Source: a bacterium
Lineage (GTDB): Bacteria; UBA8248
Reading direction: 5' to 3'
Assembly (NCBI GenBank): GCA_965213685.1
Contig: CBDBZY010000029.1
Location: 32,001-96,000, forward strand
Length of the DNA stretch: 64,000 nucleotides
Position numbers and translations under genes: made by a program. The notes below the pieces were generated by a model. That model worked only from the letters and a program-made list of their open reading frames with translations. It had not been told where the DNA came from and searched no databases. This document shows positions 5,971-49,680 of this stretch, piece by piece (positions within the stretch are counted from its first letter, which is position 1; every line of letters starts with the position of its first letter).

Positions 5971-6492
5971 TCATGGCTTGGGGCCGCATTTCTCCCGCGG
6001 CAGTTTCTCCACCCAGGGGCCTCCCGGAGGGAGGGCGGCCAGCAGGCCGGAAGCGGATTGCCGGAGGAGGGGATGAACGAGGTCGGGCGCCACCTCCGCC
6101 AGGGGAGCGAGCACAAATCGCCTCTCGTGCAATCGCGGATGCGGCACTGCCAGCCCCCGCTCGCGGATGATCGCCTCTCCGTAGAAGAGCAGATCCAGAT
6201 CGATCACCCGAGGCCCCCAACGCTCCTTCCGCACACGTCCCATTCCTTCTTCCACGCGCAACAGGAGGGAGAGCAACGCCGAGGGATCCAGCCCGCATTC
6301 GAGCGCAAAAACGGAATTGACGAAGGGAGGCTGCGCGACGGGGCTCACCGGCTGCGTGCGGTAGAAAGAGGAGGAGCGCAGGAGCCTGACCCCCGGGCTT
6401 CTCTGTAGCGCATCCCGCGCGCGCCCTATCTGGCGGATCGGCTCGCCCAGGTTCGCGCCCGCCCCGACGAAAGCAGGCGCCCAGCGGGTCAA
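5971..6492 (-). CDS. folK: 2-amino-4-hydroxy-6-hydroxymethyldihydropteridine diphosphokinase
   Basis: GAGANLG, QPPFVNSV, RWGPRVIDLDLL and VPHPRLHERRFVLAPLAE motifs. Probable TTG start overlapping the dapL stop. Confidence 0.93.
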   Translation of the reverse strand: MTRWAPAFVGAGANLGEPIRQIGRARDALQRSPGVRLLRSSSFYRTQPVSPVAQPPFVNSVFALECGLDPSALLSLLLRVEEGMGRVRKERWGPRVIDLDLLFYGEAIIRERGLAVPHPRLHERRFVLAPLAEVAPDLVHPLLRQSASGLLAALPPGGPWVEKLPREKCGPKP

Positions 6493-7664
6493 AACCCCGC
6501 CTTCTCGATCCGCGCGAGCGCCTCTCGGAGCCTGGCTTCCGGGACCGTCAAGGCCAGGCGCACATATCCCTCGCCCGAGGGGCCGAAACCGTTGCCGGGC
6601 GTCGTGACAACCCCGCAATTTCTCAGAATATGCGCCGTGAACTCGCTCGACGTGAAGCCGTCCGGACACTTTACCCACACATAGAACGTGGCCTTCGGCG
6701 TGGCCGCCTCCAACCCGAGCTTCCGCAAGCCGTCCATCACCACGTCCCGCCTGCCCTGATATATCCTGCGCATCTCGGCCACGCAGCCCTGGTCCGCGCC
6801 CATCGCCTCGATGCCGGCCTCCTGCACCGCGCCGAACACGCCGGAATCCACGTTCGTCTTGACGGCGCCCAGGCCGGCGATGGCCTCCGCGTTCCCCACC
6901 GCGCACGCGATGCGCCAGCCGGTCATGTTGTAGGTCTTCGAGCAGGAGTGGAACTCGACGCCCACCTCCTTGGCGCCGTCGGCGCTCAGGAAGCTGATGG
7001 GTTCATAGCCGTCAAAAGACATTTCCGAATAGGCGTTGTCGCTGCACACGATGATGTCGTACGAACGGGCGAACTCCACGAGTTCGTCGTAGAAGCCCAC
7101 TTCGGCGCAGGCGGCGGTGGGGTTGTTCGGATAGTTGACGAACAACAGCTTGCTGCTTCTCGCCACCTCCGATGGAATCGCGCCCAGGTCCGGCAAGAAA
7201 CCGTTCTCCGAGGTGAGCGGCATGAAATGCACCTTCCCGTCCGCGAAGTATGTCCCGATCTCATACACAGGGTACGCCGGGTCGGGAACGAGCGCATAAT
7301 CGCCGGGGTCCACAAACGCCAAAGGCATGTGGGCGATGCCCTCCTTGGAGCCGATCAGGGAGACCACCTCGGCGCCCGGGTCGAGGGAAACCCCGAATCG
7401 CGACTGGTACCAATCGGCGCAGGCTTTGCGATAGCTGGGCATCCCCTCGTAGGAGGGATACTGATGATTCGAGATTTTCCGCGCAGCCGCATCGAGCGCC
7501 TCGATGATGTGGTCGGGAGTCGGCAAATCCGGATCCCCGACGCCCAGGCTGATGATGTCCATGCCCGTATCGGCGACCTCCTGCTTCATCCTGTCGATTT
7601 CCGCGAAGAGATAGGGGGGCAAGCGCTTCAGGCGCTGCGCGCGTTCGATATGGATTGACGCCAT
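6489..7664 (-). CDS. dapL: LL-diaminopimelate aminotransferase (PLP, class I)
   Basis: RLKRLPPYLFAEID, LIGSKEGIAH, NYPNNPT and HSCSKTYNMTGWRI motifs; lies near dapB/dapF/lysA. Confidence 0.85.
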   Translation of the reverse strand: MASIHIERAQRLKRLPPYLFAEIDRMKQEVADTGMDIISLGVGDPDLPTPDHIIEALDAAARKISNHQYPSYEGMPSYRKACADWYQSRFGVSLDPGAEVVSLIGSKEGIAHMPLAFVDPGDYALVPDPAYPVYEIGTYFADGKVHFMPLTSENGFLPDLGAIPSEVARSSKLLFVNYPNNPTAACAEVGFYDELVEFARSYDIIVCSDNAYSEMSFDGYEPISFLSADGAKEVGVEFHSCSKTYNMTGWRIACAVGNAEAIAGLGAVKTNVDSGVFGAVQEAGIEAMGADQGCVAEMRRIYQGRRDVVMDGLRKLGLEAATPKATFYVWVKCPDGFTSSEFTAHILRNCGVVTTPGNGFGPSGEGYVRLALTVPEARLREALARIEKAGF

Positions 7665-7921
7665 GAAATTCCTCAAAAATGATGATGAACAGAAACCGGG
7701 AGGGCCATCATCTAGGCCGGCCTCCATGATTTGCATGCTGCTTCCCGGCACAGCCGATCAAACGCCGCCGACGACTCCAGCGTCCCCGGCGGGTTTTCCC
7801 GCTCCGTGCGAGGGGAGAACCTAACACGCCCCGAGAAATGCGGCAAGGCTCTCCCCCGGTGCGCGCAAAAACCGGGCGCAAACGCCCTGAAACTTCTTTT
7901 GAAAGATGAACGATCATATTT

Positions 7922-7934
7922 TAATTATTTGATA
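7922..7934 (-). promoter_or_regulatory. IHF consensus site in the AT-rich divergent dapL/ferredoxin promoter region
   Basis: Minus strand TATCAAATAATTA is an exact match to WATCAANNNNTTR. An inverted near-match (ATTCAAACACTTT) lies at about 7949-7961. Confidence 0.4.
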
Positions 7935-8100
7935 TATTCGGTGTTACAATTCAAACACTTTGCGCTTTCACGTTCTTCCTCCCCGTCTTGTGTTTTCGCC
8001 CCCGAAAGTGGTAGCATGTTCCCGCTGGGGAGAACGCCTTGGGGAGGCGAATGACCCCATACTGCCCGAACTTTACCTGGACCTGGAGGAGTGTGCTCCG

Positions 8101-9069
8101 ATGACCCACGTCATCGCTGAACCATGCGTCGGCACGAAAGACACCGCCTGCGTGGACGTATGCCCGGTGGACTGCATCCATGAGGCCGCGGACGGCTCAA
8201 GCCCCATGCTGTACATCGACCCCGACGAATGCATCGACTGCGCGGCCTGCGTCCCGGCCTGTCCGGTGGACGCCATTTTCGCGGAAGGCGACCTGCCCTC
8301 CAAGTGGAGCAAATACACGCAGATGAACGCGGATTTCTTCGCGGGCGGCGGCGTCGCCACAGGCGCGCCGGCGGGGGGCGGGGCACCGGCCGCCGCGCCG
8401 GCGAAAAAGAAGAAGGCGGAGCCGGAGCCCGAGCCCCTGCCCGAGCCTTTGGAGCTCACGTCCGAGGAGATGTACAAGCAACTCTCCGACCTCAGGAAGG
8501 ACGTGGCGCTGAACAGAGGAAAGGGAGAGGATACGGGCGCGGCGAGAAGGTCGCCCGGCCTCGTCTTCCTGGCCGCCGCCGTGATACTGCTGGTGGTGTA
8601 CGGCATCTCCAACAACTTCTCGAAAACCGTCAACACCAGCCTCTACGGGAAGCTGAGCGCCTTTGCGTTGGGAAGCGAAAAACCCACCCTCTCCGGCAGC
8701 ATCTATACCGTCAACCGAACGATCGGGGGCAAGCGATATACCCTCCTGGTGTCCGACTCGATTTTCGGCGGGCGCACCCTGCGGCTGCAGGCGCCGACCA
8801 ACCCGATTCAGAAGATATACCACGAGGACGAGCAGTTCTTCTCCAACGCATCGAACCAATACAGCCGCTACTACCATCTGTACATTGACGACAAGAGCGA
8901 TGGAACGGTGGACTCCATCCTCCAGGTTCGGGAAATCTGGAGCAGGGAGAACCGCTTTCTGGGCCGATACCACAACCCGATTGCGCCAAGCCCGGAATTG
9001 CAGCGATCCTACCAGGAGGCCGCGAAAACGGTTGCGGAGCAGATCGGGATCACGGGATCAGGCGCCTAG
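8101..9069 (+). CDS. 7Fe-type ferredoxin fused to a linker, one TM helix and an unknown C-terminal domain
   Basis: GGAGGAG RBS, then MTHVIAEPCVGTKDTACVDVCPVDCI...CIDCAACVPACPVDAI (C-x7-C-x3-CP and CxxCxxCxxxCP). The frame stays open through an AGP-rich linker, the TM segment LVFLAAAVILLVVYGI and about 150 further residues. Confidence 0.85.
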   Translation: MTHVIAEPCVGTKDTACVDVCPVDCIHEAADGSSPMLYIDPDECIDCAACVPACPVDAIFAEGDLPSKWSKYTQMNADFFAGGGVATGAPAGGGAPAAAPAKKKKAEPEPEPLPEPLELTSEEMYKQLSDLRKDVALNRGKGEDTGAARRSPGLVFLAAAVILLVVYGISNNFSKTVNTSLYGKLSAFALGSEKPTLSGSIYTVNRTIGGKRYTLLVSDSIFGGRTLRLQAPTNPIQKIYHEDEQFFSNASNQYSRYYHLYIDDKSDGTVDSILQVREIWSRENRFLGRYHNPIAPSPELQRSYQEAAKTVAEQIGITGSGA

Positions 9070-9115: not shown

Positions 9116-9637
9116 CTAGAAATCGACCTTGTCCGCCTCGTCGGTCTCCGGAAAAGGCCCCTCCTTGATTTCGATGGCCCGGGTCCCCTCCTCCAGGAAT
9201 TCGATGCGGTGCCCCTCGTACATGAGGATCAAATCGCCGGGCGCCAAGGCCACGTCGGCGACGTGCTCCCCCTCTTTCGCATACACCCCGATGCGCATTT
9301 TCCCGGAGCGGCAGAGCATGATCTGGTGGCGCGTCGCGTTCGTGGGCCGCTCGGTCACCTCGTGGTAGTGCGGCTTCACCACGGCGCCCGGGTTTCTGTT
9401 CAGCATGACGATTTGGAGCGGATGCTCATCCGGCGTCATGTGGGCCTTGGTTCTCCTCTCCGTCTCCGGGTCCGCTCCGGCGTAGGCCTGCGCCAGATGG
9501 GCGCGCTCTGCCTCTGAGTCCAGGAACGGGGGAAACGCCCCGTAGTCATCGAAATGATCCCGGATGATGAGCGCCAGCGTCCTGCCATCCGCAGCCCGCA
9601 CATACTCGACGCCGGCCGCTTCGATCTCCCGCGCCAT
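9116..9637 (-). CDS. RmlC-like cupin-fold hypothetical protein
   Basis: VKPHYH...LAPGDLILMYEGHRIEF...EIKEGPF pattern, similar to small cupins seen in sugar-biosynthesis clusters. GGAGA RBS. Confidence 0.65.
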   Translation of the reverse strand: MAREIEAAGVEYVRAADGRTLALIIRDHFDDYGAFPPFLDSEAERAHLAQAYAGADPETERRTKAHMTPDEHPLQIVMLNRNPGAVVKPHYHEVTERPTNATRHQIMLCRSGKMRIGVYAKEGEHVADVALAPGDLILMYEGHRIEFLEEGTRAIEIKEGPFPETDEADKVDF

Positions 9638-9718: not shown

Positions 9719-10516
9719 TTAAAGTCCCAGCACCTCCGCCATGCCGTATAGGCCGGCGGGCTTGCCGAACACCCATCGCACCGCGCGAATCGCACCGGCC
9801 GCAAAGTTGTCCCGGCTCCCCGCCCTGTGGGTGATCTCCACCCGCTCGCCCATTCCGAAGAAATACACCGTGTGCTCCCCGGGGACGTCGCCGCCGCGCA
9901 GCGTCTGCATCCCGATGGCACCCGGCGGGCGTTTTCCGGTCTGCCCCTCGCGGTGAAAAACCGCGTCCCGGGGATAGCCTCCGCCGGTCGCGCTCGCCAG
10001 AATCTCGCCCATGCGCACCGCCGTCCCCGAGGGCGCGTCCACCTTCTGGTTGTGGTGCACCTCCATCACCTCGATGTCGTAGCCCGCGCCGAGGAGCCTG
10101 GCCGCCTCCTCTATCAGACGAAAGGCGACGTTCACCCCCACGCTCATGTTGGGCGCGACGACGCAGGCGGTTCTCTCGCCCAGGCCCGCGATTTCCTCGC
10201 GCTGCGCATCGCTGAAGCCGGTGGTGCCGACGACGGCGGCCATCCCCTTCTCCGTCGCCAGGCGCAGGTGGGCGACGCTCGCCTCCGGAACGGCGAAGGA
10301 GACCAGGACGTCGCCGGTCAACGAGGCCGGATCGGAGGTGAGGGGGACGCCCAGCTCCCCCAGGCCGGCGCGCCGGCCTGCGTCCTCTCCCAACCCCTCG
10401 AATCCCGCGCGCTCGAGCGCACCCGAGAGAGAGAGGTCGTCCGCCGCGGCGATCTGGTGGACGATGCGGCCCCCCATCCTTCCGCCGGCTCCGGCCACGA
10501 CAATTCGTATGGACAC
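9719..10516 (-). CDS. dapB: 4-hydroxy-tetrahydrodipicolinate reductase
   Basis: GAGGRMG, VVGTTG, APNMSVGVN, EVHHNQKVDAPSGTA and RGGDVPGEH motifs. GTG start at 10516 inferred from the RBS. Confidence 0.96.
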   Translation of the reverse strand: MSIRIVVAGAGGRMGGRIVHQIAAADDLSLSGALERAGFEGLGEDAGRRAGLGELGVPLTSDPASLTGDVLVSFAVPEASVAHLRLATEKGMAAVVGTTGFSDAQREEIAGLGERTACVVAPNMSVGVNVAFRLIEEAARLLGAGYDIEVMEVHHNQKVDAPSGTAVRMGEILASATGGGYPRDAVFHREGQTGKRPPGAIGMQTLRGGDVPGEHTVYFFGMGERVEITHRAGSRDNFAAGAIRAVRWVFGKPAGLYGMAEVLGL

Positions 10517-10686
10517 GGGATTCCCCTTATGTAGAAAGGAAAACAAGTCGTTGATCGTGCGGGGCATGATACGCTTCTCGCCCGAAAATGGGAACCTGCC
10601 GACGTCATAATGGGCAGGAGACAAGAGAAAGCGGGAGCACATCTGCTCCAGGGCCGGGCGTTTGATAATTTTGATAATATAGGGCG

Positions 10687-11319
10687 ATGAACATGCGCAC
10701 CCTCGCGATACAAACATGGGGATTTGGCCTTTTGGAAGTCCCGGCGGAAGGACAGGAAGAATCTTTGTGGGTCAAACGCTGCCAGAACGGGGACAAGGAC
10801 GCCTTTGAGCCTCTCGTCCGTCAGAATGCCGGGAAAATCCAGCGCCTCGTGTGGGGGATGCTTGGCGAGCGAAGAGAGGACGCGGACGACATCGTCCAGG
10901 AGATATTCCTCAAAGCGTATATCGCCCTCCCCAAATTCAAGGGGGAGGCCAGGTTTTCCACCTGGCTATACCGCATCGCGGTCAACCATTGCCGCGACCA
11001 TCTGAGGCGCAGCGCGCCCCTGCCGGTAGCACTCGCCGAGGATCAACTCGCCGGGAGCGCTTCGCCAGAAGACGCGGAGCGCGAGCGCCGGCTGCAGCGG
11101 AGGCAGGAGAAGCGCGCGAGCGAGGCGCTGCAAAAACTCTTGTCGCGATTGCCGGAGAAGCATCGCCGCATCCTCGTGATGCGCGAGCTGGAGGGAATGA
11201 GCTACGAGGAGATTGGCGACGTCCTGCAGATTCGGCCCGGCACGGTGCGCTCGAGGCTGAACCGCGCGCGCGCGGGCCTGTTGCGGGTGGCGGCGCAGAA
11301 CGACCGGGGGGAGAGGTGA
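10687..11319 (+). CDS. ECF-family RNA polymerase sigma factor
   Basis: DADDIVQEIFLKAY, FSTWLYRIAVN and EGMSYEEIG...GTVRSRLNRAR. Start uncertain. Confidence 0.93.
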   Translation: MNMRTLAIQTWGFGLLEVPAEGQEESLWVKRCQNGDKDAFEPLVRQNAGKIQRLVWGMLGERREDADDIVQEIFLKAYIALPKFKGEARFSTWLYRIAVNHCRDHLRRSAPLPVALAEDQLAGSASPEDAERERRLQRRQEKRASEALQKLLSRLPEKHRRILVMRELEGMSYEEIGDVLQIRPGTVRSRLNRARAGLLRVAAQNDRGER

Positions 11320-11807
11320 TGGAAGCGTGGTGGAAGCGGATGCTCGAGCGACGCCGCAACGCCCGGGGCTGGGATGCGCCCCGGCAGGAAAACGGGACGG
11401 TCGCCGGGCTCCGGTCCCTGTTCGAGGCCGCGCGCGACGACGCTCCCGCACCGGATGGGAAGCTGTGGGAGAAGCTGCGGCCCAGGCTCGCCGCCCATGA
11501 CGAGACTGCGGTCCGCCATTCCCTGCCTTTCGTCACGACGCTGGCCACGACGGGGCCCCGGCTCGCCGTCGGCGCACTGGGAGTCCTGCTCCTGGCCGCA
11601 GGCCTGTTCTGGATACAAGGGACGGAGAGGCGGGCGCGGGTCTCGCCTCTTCCGACGAATTGGACGCCCAGCCTGGACAATCCGCTGAACCCCCTCAATC
11701 CCCTGCAGGCGATCGGCCACGGCCTGGAGACGCAAACGGGCCAGGAGCTGTTGCGATACGTCGCCTACGGATCGCCTGATCGCGAGACTGCGAGACAGAG
11801 ACGATGA
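11319..11807 (+). CDS. Putative single-TM anti-sigma factor
   Basis: Coupled to the sigma gene (TGATG). LWEKLRPRL helix, then TM LAVGALGVLLLAAGLFW. Confidence 0.65.
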   Translation: MEAWWKRMLERRRNARGWDAPRQENGTVAGLRSLFEAARDDAPAPDGKLWEKLRPRLAAHDETAVRHSLPFVTTLATTGPRLAVGALGVLLLAAGLFWIQGTERRARVSPLPTNWTPSLDNPLNPLNPLQAIGHGLETQTGQELLRYVAYGSPDRETARQRR

Positions 11808-12280
11808 AAATCTGGTTCACCAGAGAATTCCTGAAGGCGTCGGCCGTCCTCCTCGTCGTGTTCACGGCGGGGGCCGGCACCGGCTATATCGGCGGGCGCA
11901 AATACGCCGAATACAGGCTCCTCAAAGACACCCGAGCCTTCTCGGCGCGGGAGGCCCGCTCCCGCCGGGGCAAATACGGGAGGCGCTTCATGCGCAGGCT
12001 GGAGCGGGACCTGAACCTGAACCCCGGGCAGCGGGAGAGCGTGAACCGCACGCTCCAGCGTCACCATGCGCGAATCCGGGAGATCAGAAACCGGATGGCG
12101 CCCCAGATGAAAGCCATCATGCGGGAGGTGCGCAAGGACGTGCGCTCGCTCCTCGACGACGACCAAAAGGTATCGTTCGACCGCATCGTCAAAACGTTTG
12201 AGGAAAGACGCAAGAGGAGGTGGAGAAAATCCGGAAGGCGCCATTCGGGCGCCCCGGCAGATCGGACGGAGAAGCCGTGA
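11804..12280 (+). CDS. Membrane-anchored CpxP/Spy/ZraP-like periplasmic protein
   Basis: N-terminal TM, with LNLNPGQ and LDDDQ (LTxxQ-like) motifs. Confidence 0.7.
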   Translation: MKIWFTREFLKASAVLLVVFTAGAGTGYIGGRKYAEYRLLKDTRAFSAREARSRRGKYGRRFMRRLERDLNLNPGQRESVNRTLQRHHARIREIRNRMAPQMKAIMREVRKDVRSLLDDDQKVSFDRIVKTFEERRKRRWRKSGRRHSGAPADRTEKP

Positions 12281-12353
12281 CTCCGTGCACAATCCGCAGG
12301 CAACAGATAAGCCGCCGCCAGAGTGAAACACAGCCGCCACACGAGAGAGGAGC

Positions 12354-12962
12354 ATGAACATGAGATTCTCAAAACGCCGCACCCTGTCGACAGCCGTCAT
12401 AGCCGCCGGGCTCGGCCTGGGCATCGCCGGTGCGTCCTGGGCCGCCAGCAACGATTCGCCGGGAGACGTGATGGCGGATTTCTCCAAAATCATGAAGGAC
12501 ATGATGAGGGACACCCATTTCGGACGGCATCGCGGAGCGCACCGCAAGCCTCCGCTGGCGGCGCGCCCGCTCGTTTCCATCGCGCTGCGAAACCATGAAA
12601 AGCTCCAGCTCACCGACTCCCAGGTGAAGCGTCTCAAGGACATCCGGGACGCTTTCTCCAAAAAGGCGGTCAAGCAAAGGGCGGAGATGAAAGCCGGCAG
12701 AATCGACCTCAGACGCGCCCTGGACGTCGAGAAAATCGACTTCGCCGACGTGGAGAAGAGGATGCGCGGGATTGCGGACATGCGGGTGAGCCTGAGGCTC
12801 GCGCGCCTTCGGGCGATTCAGGAGGGCAAGGCCGTCCTGAGCGATGCGCAGCAAAAACAGCTGGTAAAAATCGCTCGCGAGCGCCGTGGCCACGGATTCC
12901 ACAGGCAGATGTTCCGGGGCCGGGGACAGGGCGACGGGGGGAACCGCCCCCAGACTTACTAG
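12354..12962 (+). CDS. Spy/CpxP-family periplasmic chaperone
   Basis: Signal peptide, LQLTDSQ and VLSDAQ LTxxQ motifs, Met/His-rich N-terminal region. Confidence 0.8.
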   Translation: MNMRFSKRRTLSTAVIAAGLGLGIAGASWAASNDSPGDVMADFSKIMKDMMRDTHFGRHRGAHRKPPLAARPLVSIALRNHEKLQLTDSQVKRLKDIRDAFSKKAVKQRAEMKAGRIDLRRALDVEKIDFADVEKRMRGIADMRVSLRLARLRAIQEGKAVLSDAQQKQLVKIARERRGHGFHRQMFRGRGQGDGGNRPQTY

Positions 12963-13342: not shown

Positions 13343-14170
13343 TCAAAGCAACGCCTCTTCCGTCATCTCTCCGCGATAGACGAGCCTGGCCTCCCCCTCC
13401 ATATACACGTCGCGCGCCTCCGCGCCTCCGCCCTCGAAGTAGATTTTCAGTATCTCCCCGCTGCGCACCCGCACGTCCACGGGCGCGGCGAGAAGGCCGC
13501 GCGCGGCGGCGAGCACGGCGGCAGCCACGGCGCCTGTGCCGCAGGCGAGGGTCTCGTTCTCCACCCCGCGCTCATACGTTCTCAAAACCAGGGAATTCCT
13601 TCCGCTCACCTGGGCGAAATTCGCGTTCGCGCCCGCCGGGGCGAACGCTTCGTGGGTCCGAATCGCCCGCCCGTCGGCCACGACGTCGACGCCCTCGACA
13701 TCGTCCACAAACTCCACGGCATGGGGGACGCCGGTGTTCAGTTGATCCAGGAGCGCCTCCCTTCCGTTGACCTGGAGCGGGACGCGCGCGCGGTAATCGA
13801 AGGGGGGCGTCATCCGCAGTTTGACCCTGGAATCGCGCATCGTCGCGTCAATGACGCCTGCGATGGTCTCGAACGACACCGCATCCGTGGCGATGCCCAG
13901 CTCCTGCGCAAAGCGCGCGGCGCAGCGCCCGCCGTTTCCGCACATCTCGCCCTCCGAGCCGTCGGCGTTGAAAAAACGCCACTTGAAATCGGCCCGCTCG
14001 CTCGGCTCGATGAACATCAGCCCATCGGCGCCCACGGACTGTCCCCTGCGACAAACCCTCCGGACGAACCCGATCATCTCGTCGGCCTGGTGCTCGAGGC
14101 TCCGGTTGTCGATAAAGATAAAATCGTTGCCGCTTCCGCTGAGCTTGGTGAACGGGATCGTTTTGCTCAC
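13343..14170 (-). CDS. dapF: Diaminopimelate epimerase
   Basis: GSGNDF, EMCGNGGRC and TYERGVENETLACGTGA motifs. Confidence 0.97.
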   Translation of the reverse strand: MSKTIPFTKLSGSGNDFIFIDNRSLEHQADEMIGFVRRVCRRGQSVGADGLMFIEPSERADFKWRFFNADGSEGEMCGNGGRCAARFAQELGIATDAVSFETIAGVIDATMRDSRVKLRMTPPFDYRARVPLQVNGREALLDQLNTGVPHAVEFVDDVEGVDVVADGRAIRTHEAFAPAGANANFAQVSGRNSLVLRTYERGVENETLACGTGAVAAAVLAAARGLLAAPVDVRVRSGEILKIYFEGGGAEARDVYMEGEARLVYRGEMTEEALL

Positions 14171-15444
14171 GACATCCGCCTCTGTTCGATAAACGCCGGT
14201 ATGTGCTCGCCCCGAATGAGATCCTCATACGTCTCGCGCTCGCGTATCACGTGATAGTCGCCTCCGCGCACGAGAATCTCGGGCGGCCTGGGCCGCGAAT
14301 TGTAGTTCGACGACATGGCGAACCCGTAGGCGCCCGAGCTCATGACGGCCACCAGGTCGCCTCTGTGGAGTTCCGGCAAATCCCGGTCTTTCGCCAGGTA
14401 GTCTCCGCTCTCACATATCGGGCCGACCAGGTCCGTGACGTGCCTCGCCCGCCCCCTGGCCGCCTCCTCCACGGGCCACACGTCCTGGAACGCCTCATAG
14501 AGGCTGGGGCGGATGAGGTCGTTCATTCCGGCGTCGACGATGACGAAGCGTTTCTCGGGGTTCCTCTTCTCATACAGCACCCGCGTGACGAGAACGCCCG
14601 CATTGCCCGTGATGACGCGCCCGGGCTCGAAGATGAGCGTGCACCCCAAATCCTGGAGCCGCGGCAATATGGCCGTCGCGTAGTCTTTCGGCAGGGGCGG
14701 TGCCTCATCGTGATAGGTGATGCCGAGGCCGCCTCCCAGATTCAGGTAGCGGATGTCGCACCCATCCGCGCGCAGCTCGCGCACCAGGTGCGCCACAATT
14801 TCCACCGCATCGGCAAACGGGCCGCTCGTCGTTATCTGGCTGCCGATGTGGCAATGCACGCCGGAGGGCTCGACGCCCTCGAGCCTGGCGGCCTTGCGAT
14901 ACTGCTCCCGTGCCCGGTTGATGTCGATGCCGAACTTGCTCTTCTTCAATCCGGTGGCGATGTAGGGATGGGTCTGGGGGTCGACGTCGGGGTTGACCCG
15001 AATCGCGACCTGCGCCCGCTTGCCCAGGCGGCGCGCCACCGCGCCAATGTTCACCAACTCCTCCTCGCTCTCCACGTTGAACAACAGCACGCCCTGCTCG
15101 AGTGCGAAGGCGATCTCCTCGTCCGACTTGCCGACGCCCGCGAACACGATGCGCTCCGCGGGAATCCCGGCCTTGACCGCCCGAAACAGCTCTCCGCCCG
15201 AGACGATGTCCAGTCCCCCGCCCATCGCGCCGAACAGCCGGAGTATCGCCAGGTTGGAGTTGCTCTTCATGGCAAAGCAAATGAGTCGGGGAACGGAGGA
15301 GAACGCCTCGTCAAACACCCGAAAATGGCGCGAGAGCGTCTCGTGGCTATAGGCGTAAAAAGGCGTGCCCACCTCCTCGGCCAGCTGCGTCAAGGGCACG
15401 TCCTCCGCGCACAGCGCCCCCTCCTTGTACTCAAAGTGGTGCAT
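14167..15444 (-). CDS. lysA: Diaminopimelate decarboxylase
   Basis: FAMKSN, HCHIGSQ, LNLGGG, EPGR, GPICESGD and MSSNYNSRP motifs. Confidence 0.97.
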   Translation of the reverse strand: MHHFEYKEGALCAEDVPLTQLAEEVGTPFYAYSHETLSRHFRVFDEAFSSVPRLICFAMKSNSNLAILRLFGAMGGGLDIVSGGELFRAVKAGIPAERIVFAGVGKSDEEIAFALEQGVLLFNVESEEELVNIGAVARRLGKRAQVAIRVNPDVDPQTHPYIATGLKKSKFGIDINRAREQYRKAARLEGVEPSGVHCHIGSQITTSGPFADAVEIVAHLVRELRADGCDIRYLNLGGGLGITYHDEAPPLPKDYATAILPRLQDLGCTLIFEPGRVITGNAGVLVTRVLYEKRNPEKRFVIVDAGMNDLIRPSLYEAFQDVWPVEEAARGRARHVTDLVGPICESGDYLAKDRDLPELHRGDLVAVMSSGAYGFAMSSNYNSRPRPPEILVRGGDYHVIRERETYEDLIRGEHIPAFIEQRRMS

Positions 15445-19766: not shown

Positions 19767-20486
19767 ATGGAAAAATTTCACCCGTTTCTGTATTTCGACG
19801 TCTTCCCCGGACTCTCCGCCTACCCCAACATCGTGTACAGCTGGCTGGTGATGCTCTTCCTCATCGTGAGTTCCTTGCTCGTCACCAAGGCGCTCCAGAA
19901 GATACCCGTGGGCGGACAAAACGTGTTCGAGGCGATTTTCGACGCTTTTTCCGCTTTCATGGAGGGCCCCCTCGGCAAGGAGGGCAGACCCTTCTTCCCC
20001 CTCGTGTTCACGCTGGGCACCTACATTTTTCTGTGCAACGTCATCGGGATTCTGCCCGGCTTCATGGCGCCGACGAGCAACCTGAACACGAACGTGGGAT
20101 GCGCCCTCACCGTCTTTTTCGCCACGCACTACGTCGGGTTCCGGAGAAGCGGGATGGGCTACCTCAAGCACTTCACGGGGCCCATCATGTGGCTGGCGCC
20201 GCTCATGATTCCCATCGAGATCATCTCCCACCTCAGCCGCCCCCTCTCCCTCACCCTGCGCCTGTTCGGAAACATTACGGGCGAGGAGCTGGTGCTGGGC
20301 GTTCTGATGCTGCTCTGCCTGCAAATCTTTCTGCCCGTTCCCTGGGCGATGCAGATGTTCATCATTTTCGGAAGTTTCATTCAGGCTTTTGTCTTCACTC
20401 TCTTGACCATGATATACATTGCCGGTTCGCTCGAAGGGCACGACCACGACGAAGAGCATGGGCACGAGGTCGCCCACGCCCATTAA
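19767..20486 (+). CDS. atpB: ATP synthase F0 subunit a
   Basis: SRPLSLTLRLFGN, APTSNLN and IQAFVFTLL motifs. Confidence 0.97.
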   Translation: MEKFHPFLYFDVFPGLSAYPNIVYSWLVMLFLIVSSLLVTKALQKIPVGGQNVFEAIFDAFSAFMEGPLGKEGRPFFPLVFTLGTYIFLCNVIGILPGFMAPTSNLNTNVGCALTVFFATHYVGFRRSGMGYLKHFTGPIMWLAPLMIPIEIISHLSRPLSLTLRLFGNITGEELVLGVLMLLCLQIFLPVPWAMQMFIIFGSFIQAFVFTLLTMIYIAGSLEGHDHDEEHGHEVAHAH

Positions 20487-20539
20487 AACACAACCATAAC
20501 AGCCCACACCGAAATCACTTCAACAAGGAGATGTAAGGC

Positions 20540-20863
20540 ATGAAACGTTTGTTGGGAATGCTCGGACTCACCATCGCCGGCCTGGCAGCCATGGCCACCG
20601 ATGCGCTGGCCGCCGCCGCCGGGGACGCCGGAAGCGGCGAGGTTCTGAAATGGAGGATGATCTCCGCGTCATTCGCTCTGGCCATCGCCGCAGCCGCCGG
20701 CGCTTTTGCCCAGAGCAGAAGCATTGCGAGTGCACTGGACGGCACGGCGCGCAATCCGGGCGCGGCCGGAGACATTCGCGTGTCGATGATCATCGGTCTC
20801 GCCCTGATCGAGTCCCTCGTCATTTACACGTTCGTTATCTGCCTCATCATCATCCTTGGCTAG
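20540..20863 (+). CDS. atpE: ATP synthase F0 subunit c with N-terminal hydrophobic extension
   Basis: ARNP loop and GLALIESLVIY. Confidence 0.95.
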   Translation: MKRLLGMLGLTIAGLAAMATDALAAAAGDAGSGEVLKWRMISASFALAIAAAAGAFAQSRSIASALDGTARNPGAAGDIRVSMIIGLALIESLVIYTFVICLIIILG

Positions 20864-20902
20864 ATAAAAGCGCATCTCCCGTCCCGCGCGCGCGATGCGA
20901 GA

Positions 20903-20930
20903 GGGGGGGAGCCGGCCGGCTCCCCCTTTT
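20903..20930 (+). terminator. Intrinsic terminator after atpE
   Basis: GGGGGAGCCGG/CCGGCTCCCCC stem followed by TTTT. Confidence 0.7.
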
Positions 20931-21095
20931 CGCGCGGCGGGATTTTCGCTCCCCGAACGCGCGCCCTGGGCTTGGTGCGCCATGTCGCGATGCGTTCGCA
21001 ACGTCCGCTTGCTCTCCCCGCCAAAACCCATAAAATCTAACCGCGCACGAGACGCCGCGCTGTCTTACCCGTTTTCCAGCGAGCCGAGAGCCCAC

Positions 21096-21737
21096 ATGTG
21101 GGAGAACACGAAAGTCAGGATTCCCGAGGCGACCGTCAACCGATTGTCCACTTACGCCCGAATCCTGGACCAGGCCAAGGACGGGGGGACGGAGCTGATC
21201 GCGTCCGCCGACCTGGCGCGGCAATGCGGATTCAAGCCCGCCCAAATCAGAAAAGACCTCGCCTATTTCGGCGAATTCGGCGTTCGCGGCCAGGGCTACT
21301 ACGTCAAGGAGCTGCGGTACACCCTCAAGAAAATCCTGGGGGTAACCCAGACGTGGAAAGTCGTGCTCGTCGGAGCGGGGAATCTCGGCTCCGCGCTGCT
21401 GGCGTATAAAGGATTCCTGGCCCACGGCTTTGAAATCGACGCCGTCGTCGACAAATTTCCCGAAAAAATACCCGCCCACCGAACCGGCTCCCTGCCGGTG
21501 CGTCCGATGTCGGCTCTGCACCAAATCGTCCAGGAAAAAGGCATCAAGATCGGCATCGTCGCCGTGCCGAGCGCAAGTGCGCAAAACGTGGGAACGTCGC
21601 TCGTGAACGCGGGCATCACGGGCATACTGAATTTCGCCCCCACCCAGATTCAGACGCCGCGTCATGTAAAGGTAAAAAATGTGGACCTGGGCAGCGAACT
21701 CGAACACCTCTCGTTTTATCTCTCGCAAAACGCCTGA
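21096..21737 (+). CDS. rex: Redox-sensing transcriptional repressor Rex
   Basis: IPEATVNRLSTY, QIRKDLAYFGEFGVRGQGY, VGAGNLGSAL and GILNFAP motifs. Confidence 0.96.
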   Translation: MWENTKVRIPEATVNRLSTYARILDQAKDGGTELIASADLARQCGFKPAQIRKDLAYFGEFGVRGQGYYVKELRYTLKKILGVTQTWKVVLVGAGNLGSALLAYKGFLAHGFEIDAVVDKFPEKIPAHRTGSLPVRPMSALHQIVQEKGIKIGIVAVPSASAQNVGTSLVNAGITGILNFAPTQIQTPRHVKVKNVDLGSELEHLSFYLSQNA

Positions 21738-23275: not shown

Positions 23276-25060
23276 ATGGCCGTGGCGACCAAAACGCAAA
23301 ACCCCACTCCCGAACAACCGGCAAAGCTGAGGCCGAAGAAAATCCCGGGCGCCGAGATCATCTACCGCAGCCTGGAGCGCGAAGGCGTGAAGTACGTCTT
23401 CGGCCATCCGGGCGCCGTGCTCCTCACCGTCCTGGACCTGTTTCTGGAAAGAAGCGAGATCAAGCACCTGCTCATCCGCCATGAGCAGTGCGCCGCCCAC
23501 ATGGCCGAGGGCTACGCCCGCGCCAGCGGCGAGGTCGGCGTATGCCTCACCACTTCCGGGCCAGGCGCCACGAACCTCATCACGGGCATCACGGACGCCT
23601 ACATGGACTCGATTCCCATCGTGTGCCTCACGGGGCAGGTCGCCACCTCGATGGTGGGCAACGACGCCTTCCAGGAGGCCGACATCGTCGGCATGACCCG
23701 AACCGTCACCAAGCACAGCTATCTGGTGAAAGACACCGACGACCTCGCGGAAACGATTCAGGAGGCTTTCTACATCGCGCGCACGGGCAGGCCGGGGCCG
23801 GTGCTCGTCGATCTCCCCAAGGACGTCCTGCTCGGCGAGGGGAACTACCAGATTCCGGACAAGGTGGAGCTGCGCGGCTACAAGCCCACGACCAAGGGGC
23901 ACCCCAGGCAGATTCAGCGCGTGGCCAAAGCCATCCGGGAATCCAAACAGCCCCTCCTCTACGTGGGGGGCGGCGCCATTCACGCCGAAGCGCACGCGGA
24001 GATCGTGAAACTCGCGGAGACGGCGGACATTCCGGTGACATACACCCTGCTGGGCGCGGGCGCCTTCCCGAGTGCCCATGCGCTCTCGCTGGGCATGCTC
24101 GGCATGCACGGGACGGCGTACGCCAACTACGCGACCATGGAGTGCGACCTGCTCATCGCCGTCGGCGCGCGGTTCGACGACCGCGTCACCGGAAAGGTGT
24201 CGGAATTCGCGACCCGCGCGAAAATCATCCACATCGACATCGACCCCACGGCCATCGGCAAGAACAAGGTGACGGACATCCCGGTCGTGGGCGATGCGCG
24301 CCAGGTGCTCGCCGAGGTCAACAAACTCGTCGAGCCGCAAAAGCGCGCCCTGTGGCAGAAGCGGATACAGAACCTGAAAACGGAATACCCGCTGACGTTC
24401 GACTCCTCGGAGGACGCGCCGATCAAGCCGCAGGAGGCCATCCTCGCACTGAGCGAGGAGGTGGGCGAGAAGGCCATCATCACCACCGAGGTGGGACAGC
24501 ACCAGATGTGGGCCGCCCAGTTTTACAACTTCACCTTCCCGCGCCAGTTCATCTCCTCCGGCGGCCTGGGGACGATGGGGTTCGGGTTTCCCGCCGCCAT
24601 TGGCGTGGCGCTGGCGAGGCCGGACAAGCTCGCCATCGACATCGCGGGAGACGGCAGCTTTCAGATGGTGATGCAGGAGCTCGCCACAGCCGTTCAATAC
24701 GACATCCCCGTGAAGGTCTTCTTGCTGAACAACGCCACGCTGGGCATGGTGCGCCAGTGGCAGGACTTGTTCATGGACAGGCGGTTCAGCGAGGTGAACT
24801 TCGACTCCTCGCCCGATTACGTCAAGGTCGCGGAGGCGTTCGGCGCCAGCGGGCGGCGGATTGTGGACAAACACGACCTCCGGCCCGCCATCCAGGAGAT
24901 GGTCGCCGCGCCGGGCCCCTACGTCCTGGACGTGATCGTCGACCCCGACGAACTGGTGTTCCCGATGGTGCCCGCGGGCGGCGCGACAAAGGACATGATC
25001 GTTCGGGACAGCCGCAAGAAGGTTCTTCGGGGCAAGCTCAGCGCCTTGCCTGACAACTAG
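23276..25060 (+). CDS. ilvB: Acetolactate synthase large subunit, copy 1
   Basis: RHEQ, TSGPGATN, DAFQE, RFDDRVTG and GDGS...NN..LGMVRQWQ motifs. Confidence 0.93.
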   Translation: MAVATKTQNPTPEQPAKLRPKKIPGAEIIYRSLEREGVKYVFGHPGAVLLTVLDLFLERSEIKHLLIRHEQCAAHMAEGYARASGEVGVCLTTSGPGATNLITGITDAYMDSIPIVCLTGQVATSMVGNDAFQEADIVGMTRTVTKHSYLVKDTDDLAETIQEAFYIARTGRPGPVLVDLPKDVLLGEGNYQIPDKVELRGYKPTTKGHPRQIQRVAKAIRESKQPLLYVGGGAIHAEAHAEIVKLAETADIPVTYTLLGAGAFPSAHALSLGMLGMHGTAYANYATMECDLLIAVGARFDDRVTGKVSEFATRAKIIHIDIDPTAIGKNKVTDIPVVGDARQVLAEVNKLVEPQKRALWQKRIQNLKTEYPLTFDSSEDAPIKPQEAILALSEEVGEKAIITTEVGQHQMWAAQFYNFTFPRQFISSGGLGTMGFGFPAAIGVALARPDKLAIDIAGDGSFQMVMQELATAVQYDIPVKVFLLNNATLGMVRQWQDLFMDRRFSEVNFDSSPDYVKVAEAFGASGRRIVDKHDLRPAIQEMVAAPGPYVLDVIVDPDELVFPMVPAGGATKDMIVRDSRKKVLRGKLSALPDN

Positions 25061-25072: not shown

Positions 25073-26767
25073 GTGGAGCGCAACGGCTCGCAAATCCTCA
25101 TCGAAGAGTTGAAGGCGGCAGGCGTCGAGATGGCGTTCGGCATTCCGGGCGGCGCCATCATGCCTTTCTACGATGAGCTCATGAAGTCGAACTTTCCGCA
25201 CATCCTCACCCGGCACGAACAGGGAGCCGCCCACATGGCGGACGGATACGCGCGCGTGAGCGGCAAGGTGGCCGCCGTGGTCACCACCTCCGGCCCCGGG
25301 GCCACCAACCTCATCACCGGACTCGCCAACGCGCAGATGGATTCCGTGCCGCTCATCGCCATCACCGGCCAGGTGGCGACCGGCATGATCGGCACCGACG
25401 CCTTCCAGGAAGCCGACATGTATGGCTGCTCGATTCCGGTCACGAAGTTCAACTGGCTCATCAAGGACGTTCGCGAAATCCAGCGCGTCGCGCGCGAGGC
25501 GATTCGCGCGGCGACGACGGGACGACCGGGCCCCGTTCTGCTCGATTTTCCCAAGGACATCCAGATCGCCAGGACGGACTACGCGCCGCGGCCGCCCGGC
25601 GCATCCCCTCCCCCGGCGCCCGGCCAGGAGCCGAACGTCGACACGGAGGGGATCGACGCGCTGCTCGAGGCCATCGAGCGCGCCAAGCGGCCCGTCATCA
25701 TTGGCGGTGCGGGCATCATCAAGTCCGGGGCGGCGGCGGAACTCACGAAATTCGCCAAGGCCGCGGGCATCCCGGTGATCAACACGCTGCTGGGGCTGGG
25801 CGGCTTTCCCGGCACGGACGAGTTGTTCCTCGGCATGCCGGGAATGCACGGCACGGCCTATGCGAACTTCGCCCTTTGCGAGTGCGATTTGCTCATCAAC
25901 CTGGGGGCGCGCTTCGACGACCGCGTAACGGGCAGGGTATCGAGCTTCTGCCCCAAGGCGACCATCGCGCACGTCGACATCGACGCCGCCGAGATTAACA
26001 AGCGGGTGCATACCCACATTCCCATCGTCGGGAACGTGCGGGACGTGCTGGCCGCGTTGAACGCGCACCTGACGCCCGGCGACTATGCGGCCTGGCGCAG
26101 GACGTGCCTGGGCTGGAAGCGGGACTACCCCCTCCAGTATGACGCGGACGGCACCATCAAGCCCCAGTACGTGATCGACGAGATTCAGGAGATCACCGGG
26201 GGGAACGGCATCTATGCGACCGGGGTGGGCCAGCACCAGATGTGGGCGGCGCAATTCATCCGCTTCAACGAACCGAAGGCCTGGGTGACCTCCGGCGGCC
26301 TCGGGACGATGGGCTTTGGCCTTCCCGCCGCCATCGGCGCGAAATTCGCCCGCCCCCAGAAAGACGTCTGGCTCATCGACGGCGACGGCAGCTTTGCGAT
26401 GACGCTCGTCGAACTCGCCACGGCGGCGACCTACAACGTTCCCGTGAAGGTCGCCATCCTGAACAACGCCTACCTCGGCATGGTCCGCCAGTGGCAGGAG
26501 CTGTTCTTCGAGAAACGCTATTCGCACTCCCATTATCCGGAAAATCCGGACTTCGCCGCCATCGCGGAGGGTTATGGCGTCAAGGGCATCAACGTCAGCG
26601 ACGTGGGCGAGGTGCGGAGCGCCCTCCAGCGCGCGGCCGCGCATGACGGCCCCGTGGTTCTGAACTTCCTCGTCAACAAAGAGGAAAACGTCTGGCCCAT
26701 GGTTCCCGCCGGTGCGGGAAACGACGAGATGCAGCTCGCACCGCCCTCAGCGGAAGCGCGATCATGA
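25073..26767 (+). CDS. ilvB: Acetolactate synthase large subunit, copy 2
   Basis: FGIPGGAIM, RHEQ, GTDAFQE, RFDDRVTG and the GDGS ThDP motif. Confidence 0.93.
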   Translation: MERNGSQILIEELKAAGVEMAFGIPGGAIMPFYDELMKSNFPHILTRHEQGAAHMADGYARVSGKVAAVVTTSGPGATNLITGLANAQMDSVPLIAITGQVATGMIGTDAFQEADMYGCSIPVTKFNWLIKDVREIQRVAREAIRAATTGRPGPVLLDFPKDIQIARTDYAPRPPGASPPPAPGQEPNVDTEGIDALLEAIERAKRPVIIGGAGIIKSGAAAELTKFAKAAGIPVINTLLGLGGFPGTDELFLGMPGMHGTAYANFALCECDLLINLGARFDDRVTGRVSSFCPKATIAHVDIDAAEINKRVHTHIPIVGNVRDVLAALNAHLTPGDYAAWRRTCLGWKRDYPLQYDADGTIKPQYVIDEIQEITGGNGIYATGVGQHQMWAAQFIRFNEPKAWVTSGGLGTMGFGLPAAIGAKFARPQKDVWLIDGDGSFAMTLVELATAATYNVPVKVAILNNAYLGMVRQWQELFFEKRYSHSHYPENPDFAAIAEGYGVKGINVSDVGEVRSALQRAAAHDGPVVLNFLVNKEENVWPMVPAGAGNDEMQLAPPSAEARS

Positions 26768-49593: not shown

Positions 49594-49680
49594 TGGTGCC
49601 GGAGGCCGGACTCGAACCGGCAAGGGGTCGCCCCCGGTGGATTTTGAGTCCACTGCGTCTACCAATTCCGCCACTCCGGC
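49594..49680 (-). tRNA. tRNA-Leu (anticodon CAA)
   Basis: GCCGGAGTGGCGGAATTGGTAGACGCAGTGGACTCAAAATCCAC...GGTTCGAGTCCGGCCTCCGGCACCA; long variable arm and encoded CCA. Confidence 0.97.

Follow-up and report, generated by a model that had tools for sequence, protein, structure and literature searches.

The gene at positions 8101..9069 of the 64-kb window (the whole stretch of DNA analysed here, 64,000 nucleotides) encodes, in a single frame, a 7Fe ferredoxin, a flexible linker, a charged helix, one transmembrane (TM) helix and a conserved outer domain. By the comparisons set out below, this fusion is a real and conserved gene of Nitrospinota-like bacteria, the lineage being taken from the named relatives. 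Its helix, TM segment and outer domain are, on the same kind of evidence, a separable, lineage-specific module, a finding that goes beyond the initial annotation of this DNA. We propose that the protein may act as an N-in/C-out anchor that holds a working ferredoxin at the cytoplasmic face of the membrane, a model that, taken as a whole, we give about an even chance of being right.

A ferredoxin gene that runs into a membrane anchor

The features of the gene and its surroundings are as follows:

6489-7751, strand opposite to the ferredoxin gene: upstream neighbour, an aminotransferase
7899..7928, + strand: promoter-like site TTGAAA-18-AATTAT (consensus scan, 9/12 matches; weak evidence)
8085..8091, + strand: Shine-Dalgarno-like GGAGGAG, read from the sequence, 9 nt before the ATG
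8101..9069, + strand: complete coding sequence, ferredoxin-linker-helix-TM-outer domain (by translation, 322 aa plus stop)
8101..8346, + strand: 7Fe ([3Fe-4S][4Fe-4S]) FdxA-type ferredoxin head, residues 1-82 (PDB, NCBIfam, Cys pattern)
8347..8448, + strand: flexible linker, residues 83-116, G/A/P-rich with a KKKK patch and a near-invariant PEPEPLPEP
8449..8550, + strand: charged juxtamembrane helix, putatively cytoplasmic, residues 117-150, with the motif LS-x2-R-x-[DE]-x4-RG and RR at its end
8551..8607, + strand: single TM helix, residues 151-169 (Kyte-Doolittle mean 2.35 over 19 aa)
8608..8697, + strand: outer juxtamembrane segment, residues 170-199, SNNFSK-x2-N-x3-YG-L ... KPTL-G, highly conserved
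8698..9066, + strand: outer alpha/beta domain, residues 200-322 (AF2 model; no Cys)
8884..8913, + strand: acidic hairpin loop I-D-D-K-S-D-G-T-V-D, residues 262-271 (alignment A4 and model)
9116..9637, - strand: downstream neighbour, a 173-aa cupin-like protein, convergent here and also in L001, a locus from a Nitrospinota MAG

Translation of 8101-9066 gives 322 aa without a stop, the stop codon being 9067-9069, and the intact ferredoxin first described as continuing into linker, TM segment and C-terminal domain is present with every feature in its place. The N-terminus of all full-length relatives reads MT(H/Y)VIAEPC, which, together with the Shine-Dalgarno-like motif, marks the ATG at 8101 as the start in preference to the upstream TTG at 7960. 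The promoter-like site falls in AT-rich intergenic DNA between the gene and its divergent upstream neighbour. With its upstream neighbour divergent and its downstream neighbour convergent, the gene appears to be monocistronic.

The head carries Cys at residues 9, 17, 21, 25, 44, 47, 50 and 54, in the pattern C-x7-C-x3-CP ... C-x2-C-x2-C-x3-CP of one [3Fe-4S] and one [4Fe-4S] site, Cys25 being a non-ligand Cys. Sequence searches of the PDB returned 2v2k (E 8.9e-32, query residues 2-90), 1bc6 ('7-Fe ferredoxin'; 1.7e-27) and 1h98 (1.9e-26), and Fer4 of Pfam is matched at 39.2 bits (cut-off 21.1). The assignment to the Thermus and Bacillus schlegelii type made in the initial annotation is thereby confirmed, and the Mycobacterium type can be added to it. 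FdxA_Actino is the best NCBIfam family (113.1 bits, E 7e-33), yet this score lies below its equivalog cut-off of 125 bits, as does that of FdxA_Protbact (82.5 vs 135 bits). By these scores the head is a relative of the FdxA family, not an equivalog by the NCBI threshold.

The FdxA-type 7Fe ferredoxins of Mycobacterium smegmatis (2v2k), B. schlegelii (1bc6), Thermus thermophilus (1h98) and Azotobacter (FdI) align end to end with residues 1-~90 and share the Cys pattern, including the cysteine of CPVDC. They are soluble proteins of 77-107 aa, whereas the present protein has 240 further residues with a TM segment and an outer domain; at 322 aa, and with a TM helix, it falls outside the class of small soluble ferredoxins (about 77-110 aa). 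All eight Cys are invariant in 19/19 aligned members, and the head, which has a net charge of -11 over residues 1-82, shows the highest mean pairwise identity of any segment (0.89). Because it is the most conserved part and all of its cluster ligands are invariant, a working redox centre is indicated, and the head is probably a complete and functional 7Fe ferredoxin.

A join of this kind could in principle be an artefact, in which an error of sequencing or assembly within the G+C-rich linker ran separate ferredoxin and membrane-protein genes together. By codon position the GC content of the linker is 0.85/0.71/0.88, and none of the three frames is closed across 8330-8500, so that a single indel there would escape notice in the window alone; in addition, four related clusters (P0013, P0024, P0026 and P0041) have no ferredoxin part. 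The relatives effectively refute this explanation. In 18 of the 21 close protein clusters the reading frame continues unchanged through the linker; these 18 are 317-330 aa long with Fer4 domains, come from many independent assemblies and in some cases sit on Mb-size contigs. The frame continues likewise in L001, whose DNA, at 57% identity, is colinear with residues 1-318. The linker is held at 31-37 aa in all 19 members (counted from residue 81), with PEPEPLPEP conserved in frame. As for the clusters without a ferredoxin part, P0013 and P0041 begin inside the cytoplasmic helix and P0024 inside the TM helix, and the short forms otherwise contain scrambled stretches of the sort seen in fragments or frameshifted calls. 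Codon-position GC is coding-like in every segment, linker included (GC3 0.80-0.88). The bitopic protein of the initial annotation is supported by the single TM segment, and these clusters and L001 show a genuine fusion, with C-terminal homologs that recur joined to ferredoxin.

L001 is the only full-length relative among the genome-collection matches listed. Within the best 80 of 581 confirmed FdxA-related matches, 78 loci encode ferredoxins of 60-119 aa and one encodes a 157-aa ferredoxin without a TM segment, the TM form being seen in L001 only; judged by these best 80 of 581, the membrane extension is exceptional among FdxA relatives. Two further candidates were set aside: L003 (Chloroflexia), an apparent match to residues 1-228, has a stop after NADFFKH, its remaining match being of low complexity and running into the next gene, and L005 encodes a 110-aa ferredoxin. 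The trees do not reject a single origin for the fused heads (AU p 0.88), and neither the window nor the 80 loci contain a second copy of the module.

The cupin-like neighbour is 77% identical (133/173) to L001:2273-2794(-), scores 40 bits against a cut-off of 42 for the NCBIfam WbuC-type cupin, and has 73 related clusters whose named taxa are Nitrospinota, Nitrospinae, Tectomicrobia and, once, Methyloligellaceae. The 64-kb window as a whole holds housekeeping genes only.

The linker, the membrane module and its exchangeable heads

The linker is made up of a G/A/P-rich stretch (81-101), KKKK (102-105) and AEPEPEPLPEP (106-116). Its length (31-37 aa) and composition are kept and its sequence is not (identity 0.68, with P108, P110, E111, P112, P114, E115 and P116 invariant or nearly so), which is the behaviour of a leash. 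The helix that follows has R132, D134, V135, A136, N138, R139 and G140 invariant (alignment A1) and ends in RR at 149-150, replaced by RK, KR or KK in some members; given these replacements, the idea of a Tat-type export signal here was dropped as a strict feature. No second hydrophobic segment rises above Kyte-Doolittle 1.6 in the 322 aa, no N-terminal signal peptide is present, and the AF2 model has an unbroken helix at residues 152-179.

Beyond the membrane, residues 171-199 are conserved nearly as strongly as the head (11/29 columns invariant, mean identity 0.79). Residues 171-322 contain 0 Cys and 10 Tyr. A full-length AlphaFold model, built from a 19-row alignment of close relatives, was uninformative (pLDDT 37.6); a model of residues 150-322, built from a more diverse alignment, reached pLDDT 84.5 and pTM 0.76. 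The predicted fold consists of two three-stranded antiparallel meanders and a long amphipathic C-terminal helix, with strands at model positions 51-59, 62-71, 75-83, 104-114, 123-132 and 137-145 and the helix at 149-166 (protein residue = model position + 149).

The folds and families searched offer no counterpart to this part of the protein. Foldseek with the 150-322 model gave 0 PDB matches at E<=0.001 and a best query-normalised TM-score of 0.25, a value that may be low on account of the model's long TM helix; the top rows (CapZ, p32, Pur-alpha and similar sheet-plus-helix proteins, TM-score <=0.25) were treated as noise. Neither Pfam nor NCBIfam has a match for the C-terminal part, and PDB sequence profile searches with the module (A4) and with the sister subfamily described below (A5) gave 0 hits at E<=10. 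In the ESM Atlas the best score for residues 175-322 was 0.80, which is chance level, and a 'Dockerin 11%' row was discounted. The repeat proteins P0028, P0031 and P0032 were also rejected as relatives: several of their stretches match residues ~188-237 only, which was judged to be a beta-hairpin resemblance added up over the repeats and not homology of the domain (P0028 scans as LVIVD, and the P0032 sequence has the same repeat). The C-terminal part is rare, with 12 representatives among 1.84 billion proteins. The C-terminal module thus represents a protein family not yet described, whose fold is predicted with confidence and which has no solved relative. Nor was a described family with the architecture of the whole protein found in Pfam, NCBIfam, the PDB or the full-text literature searched, as the initial annotation had surmised.

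The module does recur with a different head, which the initial annotation had not seen. Residues ~124-317 align with a ferredoxin-less subfamily of ~299 aa (hhalign 99.7%, E 2e-25, 193 columns, 29% identity), which comprises P0029 and P0033-P0046, includes 14 clusters of 297-310 aa, and has one member, P0035, labelled 'Nitrospinota bacterium'. The alignment begins at residue 124/125, and homology extends from the juxtamembrane helix through the TM segment to the end of the outer domain, with invariant N, K, N, P, D-S, E, D-x3-DG-x2-D, V-x-E and G positions; N172, K175, N178 and P195 are invariant in both subfamilies. The sister proteins differ in having a ~70-aa head with a predicted SH3-like fold and no Cys motif (Atlas TM by query 0.57-0.67, to be taken as a lead only) and a basic linker (KGKTRRKR), where the ferredoxin subfamily has its G/A/P plus EP linker. 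The C-terminal module is homologous in proteins with another head, and hence is a carrier for exchangeable cytoplasmic heads.

Exchangeability bears on what the module is for. The chief role could belong to the outer domain, as a structural or assembly factor of the envelope or periplasm, with the heads as accessory adaptors and the ferredoxin as a redox-dependent regulator or interaction domain instead of a bulk shuttle. The 14 ferredoxin-less clusters would fit such a role, as would P0026 (215 aa), which resembles an in-frame loss of the ferredoxin alone, and an outer juxtamembrane segment conserved nearly as well as the head. RodZ-type and ZipA-type envelope proteins have a bitopic N-in layout with a cytoplasmic adaptor head, and the present protein may be likened to them. 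Yet no part is more conserved than the ferredoxin head, its cluster ligands being all invariant, and this points to a working redox centre; the outer domain, moreover, is unlike any known envelope-binding domain by Pfam, by Foldseek against the PDB and by PDB profile search. We consider an envelope role of this kind unlikely.

The acidic loop raises a second alternative. In the 7-row alignment A4, neither subfamily departs from D263, D267, G268 or D271, although position 267 is N in a few other members and position 266 is S or A. The DxxxDG-type loop pointed out in the initial annotation is retained in its D263, S266, D267, G268 and D271. It is at most a candidate for a Ca2+-binding loop of the DxDxDG or EF-hand-like kind, which has D/N/S at positions 1, 3 and 5, G at 6 and an acidic residue at 9 or 12: positions 1 (D263), 5 (D267), 6 (G268) and 9 (D271) are conserved and position 3 is K/N/R/V/G, and in the model the loop caps a beta-hairpin formed by strands 253-263 and 272-281. 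Transmembrane signalling might use such a hairpin: the outer domain would bind a ligand or cation, for example at D-x3-DG-x2-D, and this would be coupled across the membrane to the Fe-S head, to its state or how accessible it is, or, inside-out, the redox state of the head would control the outer domain. The outer domain is conserved, both subfamilies share the invariant acidic residues D219, E244, D263, D267, D271 and E278, motifs are conserved on either side of the membrane, and the exchange of a ferredoxin for an SH3-like head recalls the input and output domains of signalling proteins. Against this, Pfam and NCBIfam find no kinase, cyclase, DNA-binding or anti-sigma output domain, to our knowledge a ferredoxin is no signalling output, and the predicted hairpin tip offers no ligand residue at position 3 of DxDxDG. 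Signalling in either direction is thus an improbable reading, and for the one-component sensor put forward in the initial annotation nothing was found in support.

Topology and a proposed tethering model

Under the tethering model, the protein would be bitopic, crossing the inner membrane once so that the N-terminus lies in the cytoplasm and the C-terminus on the outside. Fe-S domains need cytoplasmic loading, and it is mainly the cofactor-bearing head, which has no signal peptide, that leads us to infer the N-in topology. The positive-inside rule invoked in the initial annotation agrees with it modestly in the ferredoxin subfamily (3-6 K/R before the TM segment vs 1-2 after), but the bias is ambiguous or reversed in the ferredoxin-less subfamily (2-3 inside vs 3-4 outside), and charge distribution across the two subfamilies would count against the model.

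A ~35-residue leash (flexible G/A/P stretch, basic patch and stiff Glu-Pro motif) and the charged helix would join the ferredoxin to the TM segment, and the tether would give a high local concentration of a one-electron carrier at the cytoplasmic membrane face. There the ferredoxin may shuttle electrons to or from a putative membrane-bound redox partner. The charged helix, the TM segment and the ~150-residue outer alpha/beta domain would be the anchoring module, on which the sister subfamily would carry its SH3-like head, and the conserved juxtamembrane segments and outer domain would probably dock this module to the redox partner or to an envelope structure. Conservation peaks at both membrane faces (LS-x2-R...RG inside, NNFSK...YG outside), which suggests contact with another membrane component. 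Since a plain TM helix would be enough for tethering, the conserved 150-aa outer domain implies an extra function outside the tether model.

Carriers of comparable build are known. Cytochrome cy of Rhodobacter and the rubredoxin RubA of cyanobacteria and plastids are small redox proteins with a flexible Ala/Pro-rich linker and a single TM anchor, whose accepted role is to keep diffusion confined to the membrane surface beside partner complexes. The likeness to them is one of build, with no sequence relationship, and by this analogy the present protein most plausibly works as they do; the leashed electron carrier of the initial annotation is still the best reading. The differences are that cytochrome cy acts on the periplasmic side, whereas the present ferredoxin would be in the cytoplasm, and that the anchors of cytochrome cy and RubA are bare helices, whereas the present anchor has a conserved 150-aa domain on the far side.

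RnfB and NqrF may be compared as well, since they likewise hold a ferredoxin-type domain at the cytoplasmic face through one TM helix and a flexible linker, in their case as parts of redox complexes that pump ions. Their anchor is N-terminal and without a periplasmic domain, whereas the anchor here is C-terminal of the head and has its only TM segment at 151-169; with the rnfB model the protein reaches 24.6 bits, short of the 68.7-bit cut-off. The literature on Na+-NQR and RNF uses the phrase 'tethered ferredoxin', and among the papers searched '7Fe ferredoxin' and 'transmembrane helix' come together only in one on RnfB of Methanosarcina. RnfB and NqrF are encoded in rnf or nqr operons; the present gene stands alone. 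The 44 scanned window ORFs and the six window neighbours include no gene of rnf, nqr or nuo type and neither a hydrogenase nor an oxidoreductase, and a window without a candidate gene for the redox partner, around an apparently monocistronic gene, would also count against tethering.

One nearby gene invites another interpretation. ECF anti-sigma factors have the order cytoplasmic head, TM segment and periplasmic domain, the order seen here, and an ECF sigma gene lies 1.6 kb off at 10687-11319. The protein might accordingly be an anti-sigma-like substrate of regulated proteolysis, its head held at the membrane and freed by intramembrane cleavage upon degradation of the outer domain or stress sensing. 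However, Pfam and NCBIfam find no anti-sigma domain, the head being a ferredoxin; two opposite-strand genes intervene between the ferredoxin-fusion gene and the sigma gene; the latter has a small TM protein of its own (11319-11807), followed by two LTXXQ/CpxP-like proteins; and no sigma factor is present among the 6 ORFs scanned around the gene in L001. We regard this interpretation as very unlikely.

Implications for low-potential electron transfer

Ferredoxins are normally freely diffusing carriers. A conserved ferredoxin leashed by a module that reaches into the periplasm would be a new wiring of low-potential electrons to membrane processes. If the module is only a passive anchor, the protein would extend the known range of ferredoxin architectures only modestly.

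According to PMC3578206 and PMC10839748, Nitrospinota rely on reduced ferredoxin for the rTCA cycle, and the route by which ferredoxin is reduced at their membrane is an open problem. The two occurrences of 'ferredoxin' inspected, out of 11 in the supplementary table of PMC3578206, concern enzyme names, and neither mentions the present protein. In Nitrospinota-like bacteria the tethered ferredoxin might conceivably, though this is a long shot, be an electron carrier dedicated to the membrane surface. It would link CO2 fixation or assimilation that depends on ferredoxin to a PMF-driven membrane complex, perhaps one of unusual complex-I-like type or a ferredoxin-reducing complex of a new kind, and the module would be the docking subunit for that complex. 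The exchangeable heads make the C-terminal module tractable for structure determination and pull-downs. Were the coupling true, it would give a handle on how these organisms obtain low-potential reductant.

A ferredoxin head in frame with a membrane module

By its sequence, the head of the fusion protein (residues 1 to ~90) is predicted to be a 7Fe ferredoxin. The eight cysteines, at residues 9, 17, 21, 25, 44, 47, 50 and 54, follow the pattern C-x7-C-x3-CP / C-x2-C-x2-C-x3-CP, and the closest solved relatives in a PDB search are 2v2k (E 8.9e-32), 1bc6 (1.7e-27; deposited under the title '7-Fe ferredoxin') and 1h98 (1.9e-26), in agreement with the 7Fe assignment of the initial annotation. Pfam Fer4 matches the head above threshold, and the top NCBIfam model, FdxA_Actino (7e-33), scores 113 bits, under its cut-off of 125; past residue ~109, neither Pfam nor NCBIfam gives a match.

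The fusion of this ferredoxin to the module is real. A search with residues 150-322 returned 21 clusters (53-92% identity), 18 of which are 317-330 aa long and carry Fer4 domains, and locus L001, from a Nitrospinota MAG, has a protein of 319 aa that is colinear with residues 1-318 and 57% identical over them. All of these keep the frame, as expected from the earlier proposal that the ferredoxin runs without a stop into the membrane part. The other three clusters, and the later short forms P0013, P0024 and P0041, have an internal start or garbled stretches. Throughout a 19-row alignment the eight cysteines are invariant, and mean pairwise identity is highest in the head (0.89), followed by the outer juxtamembrane segment (0.79), the TM helix (0.74), the outer domain core (0.73), the linker (0.68) and the cytoplasmic helix (0.65). 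The linker keeps a constant layout, G/A/P then KK(K) then PEPEPLPEP, over a length of 31-37 aa.

FdxA-encoding loci in species-representative genomes, namely the best 80 of 581 confirmed matches listed and not a random sample, provided the control. Of these, 78 encode proteins of 60-119 aa, one a 157-aa form without a TM segment, and the long TM form occurs among them only at L001. A quick tree of the heads (98 heads, 89 columns) is poorly resolved; a common origin for all 19 fused heads is not rejected (AU p 0.88; under the constraint the tree outscores the free search), and the smallest clade enclosing them also holds three non-fused rows, all long-branch sequences.

One single-member cluster, P0026 (215 aa), reads MARVIAEP-EPEPETQPL... 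and aligns to residues 1-8 and ~106 onward. It has apparently lost, in frame, the entire ferredoxin and G/A/P linker between the 'AEP' motifs VIAEP/C and KKAEP/EPEP, and retains the helix, TM segment and outer domain; a deletion in nature or an assembly error could account for this.

The gene and its surroundings

GC by codon position is coding-like in all segments of the fusion gene, the G+C-rich linker included, and the intergenic region 5' of it, between divergent genes, is AT-rich and contains a weak promoter-like site. Because the aminotransferase gene on its 5' side is on the minus strand and the cupin gene on its 3' side is convergent, the fusion gene appears to have its own transcript, alone.

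Features of the window
6489-7751, minus: class I/II aminotransferase, possibly DapL-like; 5' neighbour of the fusion gene
Nine bases 5' of the fusion-gene ATG: Shine-Dalgarno-like GGAGGAG, read from the sequence
8101-9069, plus: fusion gene, a single ORF of 322 codons by translation
9116-9637, minus: cupin-like protein, 173 aa; 3' neighbour, convergent to the fusion gene, then dapB
10687-11319, plus: ECF sigma factor, first gene of an envelope-stress-like cluster
11319-11807, plus: small protein, one hydrophobic segment, without a family match; possible anti-sigma
11804-12280 and 12354-12962, plus: two LTXXQ/CpxP-Spy-like periplasmic proteins
26764-27267, plus: acetolactate synthase small subunit, one copy, after tandem large subunits
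49597-49680, minus: tRNA gene; nothing else in the 64-kb window reaches the gathering threshold of an Rfam model

The window (65% G+C) carries housekeeping genes of a diderm bacterium, among them LptD, BamD, dapL/dapB/dapF/lysA, argH, ilv, pur, Rex and subunits a and c of ATP synthase. Lysine-pathway genes around the fusion gene (6489-7751, 9719-10717 and 13343-15444, all minus; an aminotransferase, possibly DapL-like, with dapB, dapF and lysA) are broken up by two insertions in their series, the ferredoxin-cupin pair and the envelope-stress-like ECF cluster (10687-12962, plus). At 19767-21737 (plus), the gene for the redox-sensing repressor Rex comes immediately after those for ATP synthase F0 subunits a and c; the called Rex ORF extends ~70 aa beyond the Rex model at the N-terminus, the model covering residues 72-279 of 280. 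The large subunit of acetolactate synthase is encoded by two full-length genes in tandem (23276-25060 and 25073-26767, plus; 834 and 738 bits to TIGR00118).

The neighbours in L001 differ (TPR, phosphodiesterase and Sel1 proteins), and only the cupin pairing is conserved: the cupin there (L001:2273-2794, minus) is 77% identical and also convergent to the fusion gene. This orientation gives no reason for co-transcription, and a functional link is not shown. The 173-aa cupin has no above-threshold Pfam match, and the NCBIfam WbuC-type cupin model scores 40 bits, below its cut-off of 42. Its 73 related clusters, where named, are largely Nitrospinota or Tectomicrobia; taxon labels on fusion and cupin relatives together are Nitrospinota, Nitrospinae, 'Candidatus Tectomicrobia' and one Methyloligellaceae, and one relative of each lies on a contig of 10,655 bp. 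Cupin relatives at 55-58% identity share a longest-contig size with close relatives (P0095 and P0051, 2,917,376 bp) or with a fusion relative (P0078 and P0006, 2,934,324 bp), and these shared sizes hint at paralogues.

A module with exchangeable heads and an undescribed outer domain

The fusion protein has one strong TM segment and no N-terminal signal sequence. Since maturation of an Fe-S head takes place in the cytoplasm, no orientation other than N-in/C-out would make sense; the positive-inside argument put forward earlier agrees with the charge bias of the ferredoxin subfamily, though not clearly with that of a second, ferredoxin-less subfamily. The latter emerged from a profile search (40 clusters at E<=0.01 from 8000 scored candidates, lengths 86-524 aa) as 14 clusters of 297-310 aa and one 195-aa fragment, one cluster being labelled 'Nitrospinota bacterium'. 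Profile-profile alignment matches the two subfamilies from residue 124/125, in the cytoplasmic helix, to 316/317 (99.7% probability, E 2e-25, 193 columns), and among the positions invariant in both are a cytoplasmic LS-x2-R...RG motif, N172, K175, N178, P195, D219-S220, P232, E244, D263, D267-G268, D271, V276, E278 and G288. The alternative head of the ~299-aa subfamily has no match in Pfam or PDB; in its Atlas model it looks similar to SH3 domains of bacteria (TM by query 0.57-0.67), and an SH3-like fold is a lead only. Listed contig sizes of the two subfamilies never coincide, which hints, no more, that they occupy different genomes.

AlphaFold models residues 150-322 (24-row alignment) confidently (pLDDT 84.5, pTM 0.76): a long TM helix runs on as a polar helix, then come two antiparallel meanders of three strands each with a short helix between them, and the C-terminal helix is long and amphipathic. 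In this model the acidic loop at residues 262-271, which is conserved in both subfamilies, forms a hairpin tip; as a candidate Ca2+ site, it has no ligand residue at the third position of DxDxDG.

The exported domain, called unknown in the initial annotation, keeps that standing: Foldseek of the model against PDB gave no match at E<=0.001 (best query-normalised TM-score 0.25), a profile search of PDB sequences with the module none at E<=10, and the ESM Atlas scored it no higher than chance. With no Pfam or NCBIfam match either, we therefore count the outer domain as an undescribed family, as far as Pfam, NCBIfam, PDB and ESM Atlas show. Exhaustive phmmer with residues 150-322 against 1.84 billion representatives yielded only 12 proteins at E<=0.001, three of which are repeat proteins (P0028, P0031 and P0032) matching the ~50-residue hairpin region only; P0028 is LVIVD by Pfam, and the same repeat is visible in the P0032 sequence. 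In each of these large proteins, 4-7 stretches match residues ~188-237, the first beta-meander (…TIGGKRYTLLVSDS…). Such matches may be chance, or the meander may derive from a propeller-blade-like hairpin.

A proposed membrane leash for the ferredoxin

The evidence is best read as a ferredoxin that a lineage-specific bitopic module leashes to the cytoplasmic membrane face. Cytochrome cy and RubA are anchored carriers of a similar kind, and RnfB and NqrF are similar in principle; among the papers listed for it, the phrase 'tethered ferredoxin' occurs in the RnfB/NqrF context only. Conservation on both membrane faces, together with the 150-aa outer domain, argues that the module contacts something else, and the gene neighbourhood offers no clue to a partner candidate. 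It is conceivable, if improbable, that the tethered ferredoxin couples a ferredoxin-reducing membrane complex to CO2 fixation or assimilation in Nitrospinota-like bacteria, a reading of interest because ferredoxin reduction in Nitrospinota is described as an open problem in two papers (PMC3578206, PMC10839748).

Searches of freely accessible full-text papers turned up no ferredoxin described as having, on its C-terminal side, a TM helix and a periplasmic domain. The initial observation is confirmed, and its interpretation is supported in part. The kind of ferredoxin is already known; the novelty lies in the membrane architecture around it, which is conserved and has an undescribed module as its basis.
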